64,000 nucleotides of DNA from a phage: sequence record PZ452584.1; one strand, written 5' to 3'. Shown piece after piece: positions 26,680 to 31,480 of the stretch (positions are counted from its first letter, which is position 1; every line of letters starts with the position of its first letter). The notes beneath the pieces are model-generated. The model had not been told where the DNA came from, did not search any database, and was given only the letters and a program-made list of their open reading frames with translations. The translations under genes were made by a program, and so were the position numbers.

Positions 26680-29600
26680 ATGGCTACTTTAAAACAAATA
26701 CAATTTAAAAGAAGCAAAACCGCAGGAGCACGTCCTGCCGCTTCAGTATTAGCCGAAGGTGAATTGGCTATAAACTTAAAAGACCGTGTACTTTTTACTA
26801 AAGATGACCAAGGAAATATTATTGATCTTGGTTTTGCTAAGGGCGGTAGTATTGACGGGAATGTTATTCATATAGGAAACTATAACCAAACTGGTGATTA
26901 TACTTTAAATGGCGCATTAACTCAGACAGGTAATTTTAATTTAACTGGTATTGCTCGAGTAACTCGCGATATTATTGCCGCTGGGCAGATTATGACTGAA
27001 GGCGGAGAACTTATTACAAAAAGTTCAGGTACAGCACATGTTCGTTTTTTCGATGGCAATAGCCGCGAACGTGGAATCATTTATGCCCCGGCTAATGATG
27101 GTTTAACTACACAAGTACTTAATATCAGGGTTCAAGACTATGCCGCTGGTAGCGAAAGCACTTATGCATTTTCAGGCAGTGGCCTATTTACTTCACCTGA
27201 AGTATCAGCATGGAAATCTATTTCGTCTCCACAAATTCTGACCGACAAAGTTATTACAAACGGGAAGAAGACAGGCGATTATGATATCTATTCATTATCA
27301 AATAACACTCCATTGGCAGAAAGCGAAACGGCTATTAACCACCTCCGTGTTATGCGAAATGCTGTAGGAGCAGGTATTTTCCACGAAGTTAATGTTAATG
27401 ACGGAATAACCTGGTATTCCGGAGATGGCTTAAACACTTATCTTTGGTCGTTTAACTGGTCCGGTGGATTGAAAGCGGGTCATTCTATTTCTGTAGGTCT
27501 TCCTCACGGTTCTAAAAATTATTCAGAAATGGGCACGGCTTCTATTGCTTTAGGAGATAATGATACTGGGTTTCAATGGCATCAGGACGGATATTATTTT
27601 AGCGTTAATAATGGAATAAAAACGTTTTTATTTAGTCCCAGCGAAACAACTAGCCTAAGAAAATTTGTAGCTGGATATTCTACTAACGGAACCGATTTAA
27701 CTACTCCTCCGACTGAAAACTATGCTCTTGCTACTGTCGTGACATATCACGATAATAACGCGTTTGGAGATGGCCAGACTCTTTTAGGATATTATCAAGG
27801 CGGTAATTATCATCACTATTTCCGTGGTAAAGGTACTACAAACATTAATACTCACGGCGGTTTGTTAGTTACTCCCGGTAATGTAGATGTGGTCGGCGGC
27901 ATGGTTACCATTGATGGTAAAAATTATGCTTCTAGTGTGCTTTTTAAAGGAAATACTACAGGATATAGTTCAGTTGATAATATAGAGCTCAAAGTTTGGG
28001 GTGACACTTTTAATACGGTAGGTGGTACTCGTAAAAACGTAATGGAAACATCTGATGCTACTGGCTGGATGCATTATATTCAACGAACTACAGCAGGTAA
28101 AGTTGAGTCCTATTTAAATGGTACCATGAATGTAAATGAAAGCATCAACGTCAGTAAAGAAGTTAACGCCTCTGGCACTATTGCTAGTAATGCTGTCAAT
28201 GCGCTTCGCATTTGGAATGCAGATTATGGAGCCATTTTTAGACGTTCAGAAGGCAGTCTTCATATTATTCCAACTGCTTATGGTGAAGGCAAAAATGGTG
28301 ATATCGGTCCACTTCGCCCGTTTAGTATGGCTTTAGATACCGGTAAAGTTACTATTCCAGATTTACAATCAAGTTACAATACGTTCGCTGCGAACGGCTA
28401 TATTAAATTTGTTGGTCATGGAGCGGGTGCTGGCGAATATGATATTCAATACGACCAAGCAGCTCCCATTTTCCAGGAAATCGATGATGATGCCGTAAGT
28501 AAATATTACCCAATTGTTAAGCAAAAATACCTTCAAGGTAAAGCTGTGTGGTCTTTAGGTACTGAAATAGAATCTGGTACTTTTATTTTACATCATTTAA
28601 AAGAAGATGGAACACAAGCCCATACCTCAAGATTTAATGCTGATGGTACAGTTAACTTCCCTGATAACGTGCAGGTTGGTGGGGGTGAAGCTACTATTGG
28701 CAAAAATGGTAACATCTGGTCTGATATCTGGAAAACGTTTACTTCTGCCGGTGATGTAACCAATCTTCTTGGTGCTGTCTATAGCCGTGTTTCAAAAGAA
28801 GGCGATACGCTGACAGGCCGCTTAACTATTAATGCCAACTCGGATGCTATTGTTATTAACAGTGCTGCAACCGAATCTGGTTATGTGAAAGGACAAAAAG
28901 CAGGCGTTGATAACTGGTATGTAGGTAATGGCGGCGCCGATAATGCTCTATCGTTTTATAGTTTCAGAACCAATTCAGGCGTTAATATTCATAATAGTGG
29001 AGAAATTGCTTTAGCTCCTCAAGGGTCGGATACTTTTTATTTTAATAGGGACCGTCTTTATATAAAGGGTTCGCACTGGGTTGCACATAAATCTGGCGCT
29101 TGGGCCGACCAATGGGGCTTAGAAGCTCCTGTGTTTGTGGATTTTGGTAATGTTGGTAATGATAGTTATTATCCTATTATTAAAGGAAGATCTGGTATTA
29201 CGAATGAAGGATACATATCTGGTGTTGATTTTGGTATGCGACGCATTACTAATAACTGGGCACAAGGTATTATCCGTGTAGGTAATCAGGAAAACGGTTC
29301 CGACCCACAAGCTATCTATGAATTTCACCACAATGGAGTTATGTATGTTCCTAACATGGTTAAAACCGGAGCAAGATTATCAGCTGGCGCTGGTGACCCG
29401 GTGTGGCAAGGCGCATGCGTTGCTATTGGTGATAATGATACCGGATTAGTTCATGGTGGTGATGGGCGAATTAATATGGTTGCAAATGGAGTGCATATTG
29501 CTTCATGGTCTTCATCCCATCATGAACACACTGGGCTTTGGGGCACCGACGGCGCGTTTTGGACTGAAACCGGAAGAGCTATTATTTCATTTGGACATTT

Positions 29601-29988
29601 AATTCAACAGAATGACAGCTATTCAACATATGTCCGCGATGTTTATGTCCGCTCTGATATTCGTGTTAAAAAGAACCTCGTTAAATTTGAAAATGCTTCT
29701 GAGAAGCTTTCTAAAATTAACGGTTACACTTATATGCAGAAGCGAGGCCTAGATGAAGAAGGTAATCAGAAATGGGAACCTAACGCCGGTTTGATAGCTC
29801 AAGAAGTTCAAGCTATTTTACCAGAATTAGTTGAAGGTGACCCGGATGGTGAAGCTTTACTTCGTTTGAACTATAATGGTATAATTGGTTTAAATACAGC
29901 TGCAATCAATGAGCATACTGCAGAAATTGCAGAACTTAAGTCAGAGATTGAAGAGCTTAAAAAATTAGTTAAATCATTGTTAAAATAA
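26680..29988 (+). CDS. 37: gp37 long tail fibre distal subunit with C-terminal intramolecular-chaperone-like domain
   Basis: 1102-aa ORF following gene 36; N-terminus conserved with T-even gp37; C-terminus DIRVKKNL...coiled-coil resembles self-cleaving chaperone domains. Confidence 0.88.
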
Positions 29989-29993
29989 TAAGA

Positions 29994-30007
29994 GGGGCTT
30001 CGGCCCC
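29994..30007 (+). other. GGGGC-UUCG-GCCCC hairpin between genes 37 and 38
   Basis: No T-run; directly followed by gene 38 RBS, so probably a stabilising or processing hairpin. Confidence 0.4.
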
Positions 30008-30019
30008 TTGGAGGTTTAT

Positions 30020-30793
30020 ATGGCAGTTGAAGGACCGTGGGTAGGATGGTCTGCGAGGGTACAAACTGGAGACCCTTGGATGGGTGGTGCCGCGCAGAGA
30101 TTGAGAATGGGAATTCCGTTTTGGATGAGTAATATGATAGGTCGATCTGTTGAAGTAATTCACACCCTTGGAGCAGACCATAACTTCAATGGTCAATGGT
30201 TCCGAGACAGATGTTTTGAGGCAGGTAGTACACCTATAGTGTTTAATATCACTGGAGATTTAGTATCATATTCTAAAGATGTTCCTTTATTCTTCATGTA
30301 TGGAGATACACCGAATGAATATGTTCAGTTGAATATACACGGCGTAACGATGTATGGACGTGGCGGTAATGGCGGTAGCAATAGTCCTGGCTCAGCTGGA
30401 GGTCATTGTATTCAAAACGATATTGGTGGGAGACTAAGAATTAATAATGGTGGAGCTATTGCAGGCGGCGGTGGCGGCGGTGGCGGTGGTAACAGGGGTA
30501 GACTAGTATTTGGTGGTGGCGGTGGTCGCCCATTCGGCGGTGGCGGGTCTTCCTCTCATATGAGTTCTGCTGCAACCGCTGGCACCATTTACGCTCCGGG
30601 TGCAGGATCTGTCGGTGAGGGGTCTCTTAGTGCATATACAGGCGGGTCTGGTGGTGAAGTTGGCTCCGCAGGAGGTAGATGTAATACTCACGGTACCGGT
30701 ACAGAATATGACGGCGGTGCTGCTGGTTATGCCGTCATAGGGTCTGCTCCAACGTGGATAAATGTTGGAGCAATATATGGTCCAAGAGTATAA
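30020..30793 (+). CDS. 38: gp38 receptor-recognising adhesin (T2/T6 type, glycine-rich motifs)
   Basis: ATG 30020 with GGAGG 5 nt upstream; 257 aa with poly-Gly blocks ([26 protein letters not shown]); too long for T4-type gp38 chaperone (183 aa). Confidence 0.8.
30464..30547 (+). repeat. (GGY)n glycine-codon tracts inside gene 38
   Basis: ggcggcggtggcggcggtggcggtggt and two further GGY runs encoding poly-Gly blocks. Confidence 0.8.
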
Positions 30794-30823: not shown

Positions 30824-31480
30824 ATGGCAGCACCTAGAATATCATTTTCGCCCTCTGATATTCTATTTGGTGTTCTAGATCGCTTGTTCAAAGATAACGC
30901 TACCGGGAAAGTTCTTGCTTCCCGGGTAGCTGTCGTAATTCTTTTATTTATGATGGCGATTGTTTGGTATAGGGGAGATAGTTTCTTTGAGTACTATAAG
31001 CAATCAAAGTATGAAACATACAGTGAAATTATTGAAAAGGAAAGAACTGCACGCTTTGAATCTGTCGCCCTGGAACAACTCCAGATAGTTCATATATCAT
31101 CTGAGGCAGACTTTAGTGCGGTATATTCTTTCCGCCCTAAAAACTTAAACTATTTTGTTGATATTATAGCATACGAAGGAAAATTACCTTCAACAATAAG
31201 CGAAAAATCACTTGGAGGATATCCTGTTGATAAAACTATGGATGAATATACAGTTCATTTAAATGGACGTCATTATTATTCCAACTCAAAATTTGCTTTT
31301 TTACCAACTAAAAAGCCTACTCCCGAAATAAACTACATGTACAGTTGTCCATATTTTAATTTGGATAATATCTATGCTGGAACGATAACCATGTACTGGT
31401 ATAGAAATGATCATATAAGTAATGACCGCCTTGAATCAATATGTGCTCAGGCGGCCAGAATATTAGGAAGGGCTAAATAA
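30824..31480 (+). CDS. t: holin T
   Basis: 218-aa ORF MAAPRISFSPSDILFGVLDRLFKDNATGKVLASRVAVVILLF...; matches T4 holin. Confidence 0.92.
   Translation: MAAPRISFSPSDILFGVLDRLFKDNATGKVLASRVAVVILLFMMAIVWYRGDSFFEYYKQSKYETYSEIIEKERTARFESVALEQLQIVHISSEADFSAVYSFRPKNLNYFVDIIAYEGKLPSTISEKSLGGYPVDKTMDEYTVHLNGRHYYSNSKFAFLPTKKPTPEINYMYSCPYFNLDNIYAGTITMYWYRNDHISNDRLESICAQAARILGRAK

Follow-up and report, generated by a model that had tools for sequence, protein, structure and literature searches.

The gp38 adhesins of phages S16 and PP01 are structurally solved, and the structural role of their glycine runs has been described (PMC6851490, PMC12892980). In S16 the long glycine run forms a central polyglycine-II helix (PMC6851490). 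The variable segments of these adhesins determine receptor specificity (PMC3157838, PMC12032242, bioRxiv 10.64898/2026.04.02.716166). S16 and PP01 bind OmpC (PMC12892980). The receptor of the allele carried by T6 and FL23/T4_ev151 is Tsx (PMC12032242), and phages FL12, FL18, FL20, and EV240 are OmpA-dependent by knockout or RB-TnSeq (PMC12032242; bioRxiv 10.64898/2026.04.02.716166).

We analyzed a 64,000-nucleotide stretch of phage DNA (sequence record PZ452584.1; here called the window), which carries a gene 38 at positions 30020..30793 of the plus strand. Its product is an ordinary member of the solved adhesin family; this reading is a textbook one and already known. With a probability of about 90 %, we read gp38 as a T2/T6/S16-type adhesin of the Ac3/FL12/EV240 class, with OmpA as the predicted receptor, glycine tracts of fixed length, and variation arising in the loops and by recombination. 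The present understanding of the adhesin family is left unchanged by this protein. For annotation, the phage should be labeled as having a gp38 adhesin of T2 type and Ac3/EV240 class.

Gene 38, its neighbors, and the fold of its product

The reading frame extends from ATG 30020 to TAA 30791–30793 and encodes 257 aa plus the stop; the gene was identified through Pfam, PDB, AF2, and Foldseek. On reading the sequence, a Shine-Dalgarno motif, GGAGG (30010..30014, plus strand), is found 5 nt 5′ of the ATG. In the Ac3 record a ribosome-binding site is annotated at the equivalent position. ATG 30020, and not the in-frame TTG 30008 of the ORF listing, is the true start because all homologues begin with MAV.

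The gene order is 36-37-38-t, with gene 38 located between the gp37 gene and the holin gene t. Gene 37 (26680..29988, plus strand; Pfam, 6F45_A) encodes the distal subunit of the long tail fiber, which has 1102 aa and is predicted to be capped by gp38. Pfam places Peptidase_S74 at aa 992–1051 of gp37, in addition to gp37/gp34 trimer domains. The C-terminal 192 aa match the S16 gp37 of the gp37–gp38 crystal complex (6F45_A) with a value of 1.8e-44. An SDIRVKK motif at aa 992 and the S74 match delimit a C-terminal intramolecular chaperone fragment of 111 aa (29653..29985, plus strand), which we infer to be autocleaved. Cleavage of gp37 has been reported for T2/T6 (PMC3157838, citing Drexler 1986). 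Gene t (30824..31480, plus strand), the 3′ neighbor, matches Phage_holin_T at 4.3e-118 and serves as a synteny marker.

A hairpin, GAGGGGC-UUCG-GCCCCUU, is found between genes 37 and 38 (29992..30009, plus strand; RNA fold −15.2 kcal mol−1, z = −1.67). In phage G2133 this site carries the annotation of a putative terminator. Here the hairpin was scored as a terminator on the minus strand only, and the counts from the promoter and terminator scan around gene 38 equal the shuffle expectation. In the whole window, neither the Rfam scan nor the tRNA scan found a hit.

Glycine accounts for 24.9 % of gp38, as against 4–12 % in the adjacent gp36, gp37, and holin. When the residues of gp38 were shuffled 100,000 times, a run of at least nine glycines appeared in just 40 shuffles; the glycine richness exceeds chance by far. 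The first-pass annotation had described a 257-aa product with poly-Gly blocks, separated by short variable segments and encoded in part by (GGY)n DNA at 30464–30547. The product is as described, and the poly-Gly strings quoted for it are present at aa 148–160 and aa 165–178. The DNA position was confirmed as well: this interval holds glycine codons in groups of nine (30464–30490), five (30512–30526), and four (30536–30547). The G+C content of the tract is 70 %, compared with 35.6 % for the window. Variable segments do separate the blocks, although with lengths of 7 to 31 aa the word “short” needs some qualification.

Both Pfam families of the adhesin are matched by gp38, each far above the cut-off of 25 bits. 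GP38 (PF05268) covers aa 45–257 at 2.5e-69 (profile 1–218/218), and Gp38_N (PF21721) covers aa 1–40 at 1.3e-19 (profile 1–40/40). A phmmer search against the PDB gave 9V85 (the receptor-binding domain of PP01 gp38) at 1.6e-78 and 6F45_D (S16) at 6.5e-52; the match to 6F45_D extends along the whole protein. The AF2 model, which is a prediction and not an experimental structure, has a pLDDT of 89.3. Compared with the PDB by Foldseek, this model matches 9V85 with a TM score of 0.84 and an rmsd of 2.3 Å, and 6F45_D with E = 1e-22; beyond these two entries, nothing was returned with E < 4. The model has the three-domain fold, namely a helical attachment domain, a beta-helix, and a polyglycine-II sandwich. 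An IMG/VR scan for gp38 returned 13 loci, mostly partial N-terminal matches, which were left out of the comparisons.

Conservation and gap profiles were drawn from sets of 108 and 71 homologues and from 18 close alleles. Conserved glycine-rich motifs alternate with hypervariable segments; the motifs are gap-free and invariant, and substitutions and indels cluster between them. The segment boundaries used here are our own and approximate the GRM/HVS scheme of Trojet et al. 2011. The N-terminal attachment domain (aa 1–47; 30020..30160, plus strand), recognized from the Gp38_N match and residues W7, W20, and W35, is predicted to dock on the gp37 tip. These tryptophans are conserved in 108/108, 107/108, and 90/108 homologues, respectively, and align with W7, W20, and W36 of S16, whose gp38 docks on gp37 through three such residues (PMC6851490). 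At least four variant types of this domain exist, and they assort independently of the C-terminal loops.

The beta-helix body (aa 48–148; 30161..30463, plus strand) is made of predicted beta strands that align with the beta-helix of 9V85 and 6F45. Within it lie the first Gly motif, GRGGNGG (30356–30376, plus strand), and the loop SNSPGSA (30377–30397, plus strand). Only 4 of its 101 positions vary among close relatives. The 9-Gly tract (aa 149–157; 30464..30490, plus strand) follows; it aligns to the G8 run of S16 and is equivalent to S16 helix 3 (151-GGGGGGGG-158). The homologue alignment then places the variable loop HVS2, NRGRLVF (aa 158–164; 30491..30511, plus strand), at a position where 108 homologues display 51 distinct sequences; NRGRLVF itself recurs exactly in 21 cluster representatives. 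The next conserved Gly motif (aa 165–176; 30512..30547, plus strand) has G165, G166, G168, G169, P171, G173, and G176 in every one of 71 sequences. The variable loop region HVS3 (aa 177–207; 30548..30640, plus strand) contains indels, and its variable columns number 14/32 within the allele class and 21/32 across all 18 sequences. A further conserved Gly motif (aa 208–219; 30641..30676, plus strand) precedes the variable loop HVS4 (aa 220–231; 30677..30712, plus strand), in which 6/12 columns vary. The last Gly motif and the conserved C-terminus (aa 232–257; 30713..30790, plus strand) return to the beta-helix.

The following assembly can be proposed. The gp37 subunit would trimerize with the assistance of the S74-type intramolecular chaperone at its own C-terminus, and this chaperone would then be removed at about Ser992. 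The three-helix N-terminal domain of gp38 would plug onto the exposed gp37 tip through W7, W20, and W35, and gp38 would be part of the virion. The remainder of the monomeric protein is a beta-helix, and two long excursions from it fold into a “polyglycine sandwich” of three layers. The polyglycine-II helices of this sandwich are the poly-Gly blocks, the 9-Gly run being central, with a saturating backbone hydrogen-bond network. HVS2, HVS3, and HVS4 would be distal loops that touch an outer-membrane beta-barrel. Host range evolves through substitutions and small indels in these loops, and also through exchange of the N-terminal module or the loop cassette by homologous recombination, the junctions lying in conserved DNA of the beta-helix and the Gly motifs. 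The fold keeps the Gly tracts at fixed length, and they are no source of adhesin variation.

Predicted receptor

The specificity region (aa 148–235) aligns without gaps to those of the four OmpA-dependent phages, which come from three genera, with identities of 83/88 (FL12), 82/88 (EV240), 77/88 (FL20), and 75/88 (FL18). The corresponding figures are 60/93 with 9 gaps for the Tsx phages FL23 and T6, and 38/97 for OmpA type 1. Four phages that require OmpA have almost the same variable loops as the window allele, and OmpA is therefore the predicted receptor. On this comparison of sequences, gp38 probably binds it as a “type 2” OmpA binder. The receptor panel suggested in the first-pass annotation (OmpC, OmpF, Tsx, and FadL) omits OmpA, on which the four closest relatives with an experimentally determined receptor depend.

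A different receptor, whether Tsx, a dual specificity, or a new one, would follow if substitutions specific to the window shifted recognition; we regard this as unlikely, with a chance of perhaps one in five. Single loop substitutions in gp38 can switch the receptor (bioRxiv 10.64898/2026.04.02.716166; PMC3157838): Q206L takes RB68 from OmpF to OmpW, and a few residues separate PST from T6. The window allele has two candidates for such a change. G174, with which the GGGGSS block begins, and A184 are found in none of its 17 closest relatives, all of which have A or S in place of G174, and at least five further differences separate the allele from each typed phage. Even so, HVS2 is identical to that of FL12 and FL20, HVS4 is identical to that of EV240, and 75–83 of the 88 specificity residues are those of the OmpA-dependent phages. 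The beta-helix and HVS1 are common to the window and the Tsx-type alleles, but the latter differ from the window by a 5-codon insertion, located at HVS2, a 4-codon deletion, and about 30 substitutions. For the nearest relatives, Ac3 and VEc74, a receptor was not found in our literature search. The exact window protein has no record by exact-sequence look-up, although megablast matched about 380 public records of Tevenvirinae.

The predicted OmpA target guides the choice of receptor-knockout hosts and the design of cocktails. If OmpA is targeted, the likely route to resistance is ompA loss or loop variation.

Length of the polyglycine tracts and recombination

The poly-Gly DNA tracts are length-locked structural elements and not slippage-driven hotspots. 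At the codon level, the 9-Gly and 5-Gly lengths are the same in 18/18 close alleles despite saturating synonymous change: the 9-Gly tract occurs as 14 synonymous haplotypes, all of nine codons. The lengths stay at nine and five even in alleles with perfect (GGC)8 and (GGC)6. At the protein level, the length of the Gly run is fixed within every HVS2 allele class among 108 homologues, save for P0085, which comes from a single assembled contig. The second tract, which precedes RPF, is G5 in 107/108.

The 9-Gly GGY tract may be fixed in length yet active as DNA. Register-shifted misalignment or short-patch conversion would then scramble synonymous positions and would occasionally reach the adjacent receptor loop. 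We consider this proposal unlikely. Two homologues hint at tract events spilling into the loop. In OES_C-3, NY is changed to GG, so that the Gly run extends across two HVS2 codons and 12 consecutive Gly codons result; P0085 has a 5-codon deletion that leaves four glycines in place of nine. If true, repeat-templated events would be a minor but real route of HVS2 change beside point mutation and cassette exchange.

The first-pass annotation had proposed that the (GGY)n DNA is prone to slippage and could drive rapid adhesin variation. In this reading the tracts would act like a contingency locus, with expansion and contraction quickly yielding new variants. Tandem Repeats Finder does report a weak repeat, GGCGGCGGT x3, with a 94 % match and a score of 47 at period 9; at period 3 the match is 80 % and the score 32. 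Perfect (GGC)6–8 runs exist in some alleles, but the longest perfect trinucleotide run of the window allele is (GGC)2, and a long perfect tandem repeat, as is typical of contingency loci, is absent from it. Repeat-number polymorphism is likewise lacking, as 0/18 close alleles vary and 1/108 homologues departs from its class. Synonymous diversity is raised in the tract (third-position diversity 0.34 compared with 0.17–0.21 elsewhere; p = 0.019), and so is homoplasy, with 5/29 minimal recombination intervals inside its 27 nt. The two irregular homologues, OES_C-3 and P0085, can also be read in favor of slippage. Against all of these stand the constant lengths, and the indels that alter the adhesin are all in the loops. 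The Gly runs are core polyglycine-II helices (PMC6851490), and deletion of whole GRMs in T6 yielded no viable phage (PMC3157838). A literature search on gp38 and slippage returned nothing relevant and no proposal of this kind. The codon-level test on 18 alleles and the protein-level test on 108 homologues thus led us to reject slippage as the driver, and we judge it very improbable. A 3-nt length difference between the 1998 and 2021 records of Ac3, which we had suspected to lie in a Gly tract, is in fact a deletion of TGT (Cys221) in HVS4.

The variation of gp38 comes from loop substitutions and from modular recombination whose junctions lie in conserved blocks, which has been published before. 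The Tsx-type allele of FL23 has 8 mismatches to the window in 30020–30463, diverges from position 30490 onward, and regains identity beyond 30736; the right-hand junction of this mosaic is at about 30736. The left junction can be placed only as 30368–30490 because the whole upstream block is conserved. It thus lies no further 3′ than the tract end, the interval reaching beyond the tract itself; the 9-Gly tract forms the 3′ edge of the block common to the two alleles. In an engineered EV240-to-CM8 swap, the exchange was resolved “from HVS2 onwards” (bioRxiv 10.64898/2026.04.02.716166). Four-gamete analysis gave a minimum of Rm = 29 recombination events in 633 nt from 15 alleles. The failures inside the tract, with intervals 3 nt apart, could reflect recurrent mutation rather than recombination.

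Poly-Gly in gp38 adhesins should be seen as a rigid polyglycine-II scaffold and not be taken for hypermutable contingency repeats. Engineering and evolution of these adhesins work on the loops between the Gly tracts.

Comparison with known systems

That gp38 is a T4-type assembly chaperone, which would aid gp37 folding and be absent from the virion, is dismissed as practically certain to be wrong, since T4 gp38 (NP_049864; 183 aa, not glycine-rich) resembles it only in gene name and in position between 37 and t, and a direct comparison with the protein from NC_000866 gave a BLASTP E value of 0.92, the best segment having 9/26 identities. The window protein matches Pfam GP38 and Gp38_N and has the fold of the solved adhesins; for T4 gp38, there is no match to any Pfam family. 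The partners differ as well: the gp37 of the window has its own S74 intramolecular chaperone, while T4 gp37 is without S74, has Collar and Phage_fiber domains, and bears its own receptor-binding tip. The earlier assignment, an adhesin of T2/T6 type rather than a chaperone of T4 type, is upheld by the full-length Pfam match and by the agreement with 9V85 and 6F45_D in sequence and fold. The check proposed with it, a full-length alignment to T4 gp38, is the comparison given above and leaves the assignment in place.

The gp38 proteins of S16 (6F45) and PP01 (9V85) have the same three-domain fold as the window protein, a long central Gly helix that aligns, and a homologous gp37 partner. The window protein is 44 % identical to that of S16 and 64 % identical to that of PP01. 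The loops differ, and OmpC is bound by these two phages as against OmpA predicted here.

T6 and FL23/T4_ev151 alleles have the same beta-helix, HVS1, Gly motifs, and C-terminus as the window, and FL23 is 98 % identical to it in nucleotides as far as the 9-Gly tract. Their HVS2–HVS4 cassette is replaced, with many substitutions besides the codon insertion and deletion given above. FL12, FL18, FL20, and EV240, which carry “Type 2” OmpA-dependent Gp38, have the loop set of the window and the same Gly-tract lengths. In FL12, FL20, and EV240 the N-terminal attachment module differs from that of the window (22–26/49 identical), and gp38 is paired with a gp37 of another length. FL18 and FL20 belong to other genera, Mosigvirus and Krischvirus.

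The nearest systems are Ac3 (AF060870, Tetart et al. 1998; OK040907) and Escherichia phage VEc74 (MT932213), at 96–97 % amino acid and 94–96 % nucleotide identity. Their gp38 has 257 aa, as in the window (258 in the 1998 Ac3 record), and both have its N-terminal type, HVS2, and gene order 36-37-38-t. Most of the 7–9 residue differences fall in HVS3. An additional Leu follows S178 in Ac3, whose 2021 record is without Cys221; unlike Ac3 and VEc74, the window has G174 and A184.

Gene 38 and the family of its product

Gene 38 (30020-30793, + strand) is an ORF of 257 codons followed by TAA. The ORF listing puts its start at an in-frame TTG (30008), upstream of the ATG at 30020. The ATG is the true start, as the first-pass annotation had claimed, since GGAGG lies upstream of it on the + strand (30010-30014) and all homologues start with MAV.... 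The peptides quoted there were found, A-G9-NRG at residues 148-160 and G5-RPF-G4-SS at residues 165-178, and the coordinates of the GGY codon tracts (30464-30547) are exact. Glycine accounts for 24.9% of gp38, compared to 4-12% of three neighbouring proteins, and runs of at least nine appeared in 40 of 100,000 shuffles of gp38's own residues. The G+C content of the tract is 70% (35.6% for the window). This composition is far from chance. As a DNA repeat, the tract in the window allele is weak: Tandem Repeats Finder reports three copies of GGCGGCGGT with a score of 47, and no perfect trinucleotide run exceeds (GGC)2.

Two Pfam profiles, GP38 (2.5e-69) and Gp38_N (1.3e-19), were matched over their whole length. 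Sequence matches in the PDB are the receptor-binding domain of PP01 gp38 (9V85; 1.6e-78) and, full-length, S16 gp38 from the gp37-gp38 tip complex (6F45_D; 6.5e-52). The AlphaFold2 model, derived from 71 homologues, is confident (pLDDT 89.3, pTM 0.79). Foldseek against the PDB placed it with 9V85 (TM 0.84, rmsd 2.3 Å) and 6F45_D (E = 1e-22), and all other entries had E values of at least 4. T4's own gp38 (from NC_000866) did not align full-length with the window protein (BLASTP E = 0.92), and a T4-type gp38 was rejected. The earlier claim of an adhesin that is not T4-type agrees with the Pfam and PDB matches.

The genomic context agrees with this identity. Gene 38 is flanked by gene 37 and holin t. 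The C-terminal region of gp37 (29653-29985, + strand; residues 992-1102) contains a Peptidase_S74 intramolecular-chaperone domain (residues 992-1051) with an SDIRVKK autocleavage-type motif at residue 992. The last 192 residues of gp37 match its S16 counterpart, the chain crystallised in complex with 6F45_D (1.8e-44). S74 is missing from T4 gp37, whose domains are Collar and Phage_fiber. The S74 self-chaperone is likely the reason that a T4-type gp38 chaperone is needless in this phage. Three tryptophans dock S16 gp38 into gp37 (PMC6851490). They correspond to W7, W20, and W35 here, which are conserved in 108, 107, and 90 of 108 homologues, respectively. All sequence-testable defining features of a T2/T6/S16-type gp38 adhesin are present, and on these features we assign the protein to that family; its virion location and receptor binding are predicted.

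A 7 bp hairpin with a UUCG tetraloop (GAGGGGC-UUCG-GCCCCUU, 29992-30009; -15.2 kcal/mol, z = -1.67) separates the stop codon of gene 37 from the Shine-Dalgarno sequence of gene 38. The equivalent spot in phage G2133 is annotated as a putative terminator. Because no T-run follows it on the + strand, the hairpin may instead act in RNA stability or processing. The 64-kb window (1-64000) contains no tRNA genes according to ARAGORN and no Rfam families at the gathering threshold.

Allele class and predicted receptor

The locus is of Tequatrovirus origin, and its gp38 is most similar to those of VEc74 (96.5% amino acid identity) and Ac3 (94-97% amino acid, 96% nucleotide identity), whose gene 38 was first sequenced in 1998 (AF060870). 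An identical protein was absent from all records and public assemblies looked up. The two Ac3 sequences, AF060870 (L015, 1998) and OK040907 (L016, 2021), differ solely by a TGT deletion at the Cys221 codon in the variable loop HVS4 (residues 220-231). This site is equivalent to window 30680-30682, outside the glycine tracts; either the stocks have diverged or the sequencing differed.

The specificity region (residues 148-235, from division of the protein by its conservation profile) was compared with those of experimentally typed phages. It is identical at 83, 82, 77, and 75 of 88 aligned positions to FL12, EV240, FL20, and FL18, all OmpA phages, with 0 gaps. The values are 60 of 93 with 9 gaps for the Tsx phages FL23 and T6, and 38 of 97 with 17 gaps for AV119 and FL08 (OmpA 'type 1'). 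Knockout plating established the OmpA dependence of FL12, FL18, and FL20, which carry 'type 2' adhesins (PMC12032242). EV240 is OmpA-specific by RB-TnSeq, and this specificity moves with its gp38 (bioRxiv 10.64898/2026.04.02.716166). As the region is closest to those of these four phages, OmpA is the predicted receptor, with a probability of roughly three in four. The mutant panel suggested earlier is missing ompA.

One loop substitution can switch the receptor, as in RB68 Q206L (bioRxiv 10.64898/2026.04.02.716166) and PST versus T6 (PMC3157838). Two residues distinguish the window protein from its 17 closest relatives: G174 (30539-30541), where the relatives carry A or S, and A184 (30569-30571), where they carry G, as do at least 90% of 71 homologues. 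Located at the edge of the third glycine motif or in HVS3 (residues 177-207), they could affect receptor fit.

Glycine tracts and the origin of variation

The first-pass annotation had proposed that slippage in the (GGY)n tracts could drive rapid adhesin variation. Gene 38 DNA was fetched from 18 relatives; the codon alignment holds the window and 17 of these, and the EV240 tract was read separately. The 9-codon tract (30464-30490, residues 149-157) is of equal length in 18/18 aligned sequences and in EV240, and the 5-codon tract (30512-30526) in 18/18. This constancy covers Tsx-type alleles and perfect-repeat alleles, namely FL12 with (GGC)8 and SF5 and SF6 with (GGC)6. All indels are in variable loops: FL23 and T4_ev151 have a 5-codon insertion directly 3' of the ninth glycine and a 4-codon deletion in HVS3, and Ac3 has one additional Leu in HVS3. 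Among 108 homologues, the first run is nine in NRG(R/K)L-type adhesins (one exception) and eight in all IAYRPHSG types, so its length is fixed by clade. Of these homologues, 107 have G5 as the second run. The lone within-class variant, P0085, known from one assembled contig, has four glycines before NRGKLVF against nine in its nearest relative, P0073, a 5-codon in-frame deletion.

Published structures explain the fixed length. The corresponding run of S16 (151-GGGGGGGG-158) forms the polyglycine-II helix at the centre of a lattice of three layers, whose backbone hydrogen-bond network is saturating (PMC6851490), and the same domain is seen in PP01 gp38 (PMC12892980). No viable phage was obtained from T6 when whole glycine-rich motifs were deleted (PMC3157838). 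Considering these roles and the fixed length, the tracts are a scaffold and not a generator of variation. Slippage is unsupported, and a simple-repeat contingency locus was rejected on the fixed tract length and the confinement of indels to loops.

The DNA of the 9-Gly tract is not inert. The tract's third positions form 14 haplotypes in 18 sequences at constant length, with a diversity of 0.344 compared to 0.206 for other invariant glycine codons and 0.170 for other four-fold sites (permutation p = 0.019 for the excess). The 27 nt of the tract contain five of the 29 Hudson-Kaplan minimal intervals, and the four-gamete test fails for sites 3 nt apart. In these 18 sequences, the scrambling is compatible with repeated mutation at wobble positions, with register shifts that preserve length, and with recombination-junction repair. 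In OES_C-3 (equivalent of window 30464-30499), GGC GGC follows the tract in place of AAC TAC or AAC AGG, giving 12 glycine codons in series, (GGCGGTGGT)x3 then GGCGGCGGT. Relative to AAC TAC, five of the six bases are changed, which points to templating by the repeat or to an artefact of assembly in this single database record.

Variation in the Ac3-type class is found at 4/7 positions of HVS2 (residues 158-164), 14/32 of HVS3, 6/12 of HVS4, and 12 of the C-terminal 26 residues, against 4/101 in the beta-helix. The loops and the N-terminal attachment module, of which there are at least four types, assort independently: SF5 and SF6 have identical C-terminal regions and different N-termini, and FL23 combines the N-terminus of the window with Tsx loops. 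In the 444 nt that precede the tract, FL23 shows 8 mismatches with the window. The two sequences part from 30490 onwards and agree completely beyond 30736. The left junction is bracketed no more closely than 30368-30490. Such mosaic junctions were described by Tetart et al. (1996/1998), as cited in PMC3157838. An engineered EV240-to-CM8 swap resolved 'from HVS2 onwards', reproducing the pattern (bioRxiv 10.64898/2026.04.02.716166). The allele class spans three Straboviridae genera, Tequatrovirus (L016/L019), Mosigvirus (FL18, L018), and Krischvirus (FL20, L020), with identical or near-identical HVS2-HVS4. In FL20, the adhesin gene adjoins neither gene 37 nor holin. Together, this indicates horizontal exchange of the adhesin cassette.

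Relation to known adhesins

Overall, the adhesin assignment and the proposal that loops set host range stand, the latter on earlier published work, and the slippage mechanism does not. The two points that stand were already known, and have been textbook knowledge since Riede, Drexler, and Henning (1987-89), Tetart (1998), Trojet (2011), and Dunne (2018). The only new feature of the window allele is its few residue differences from Ac3 and VEc74.
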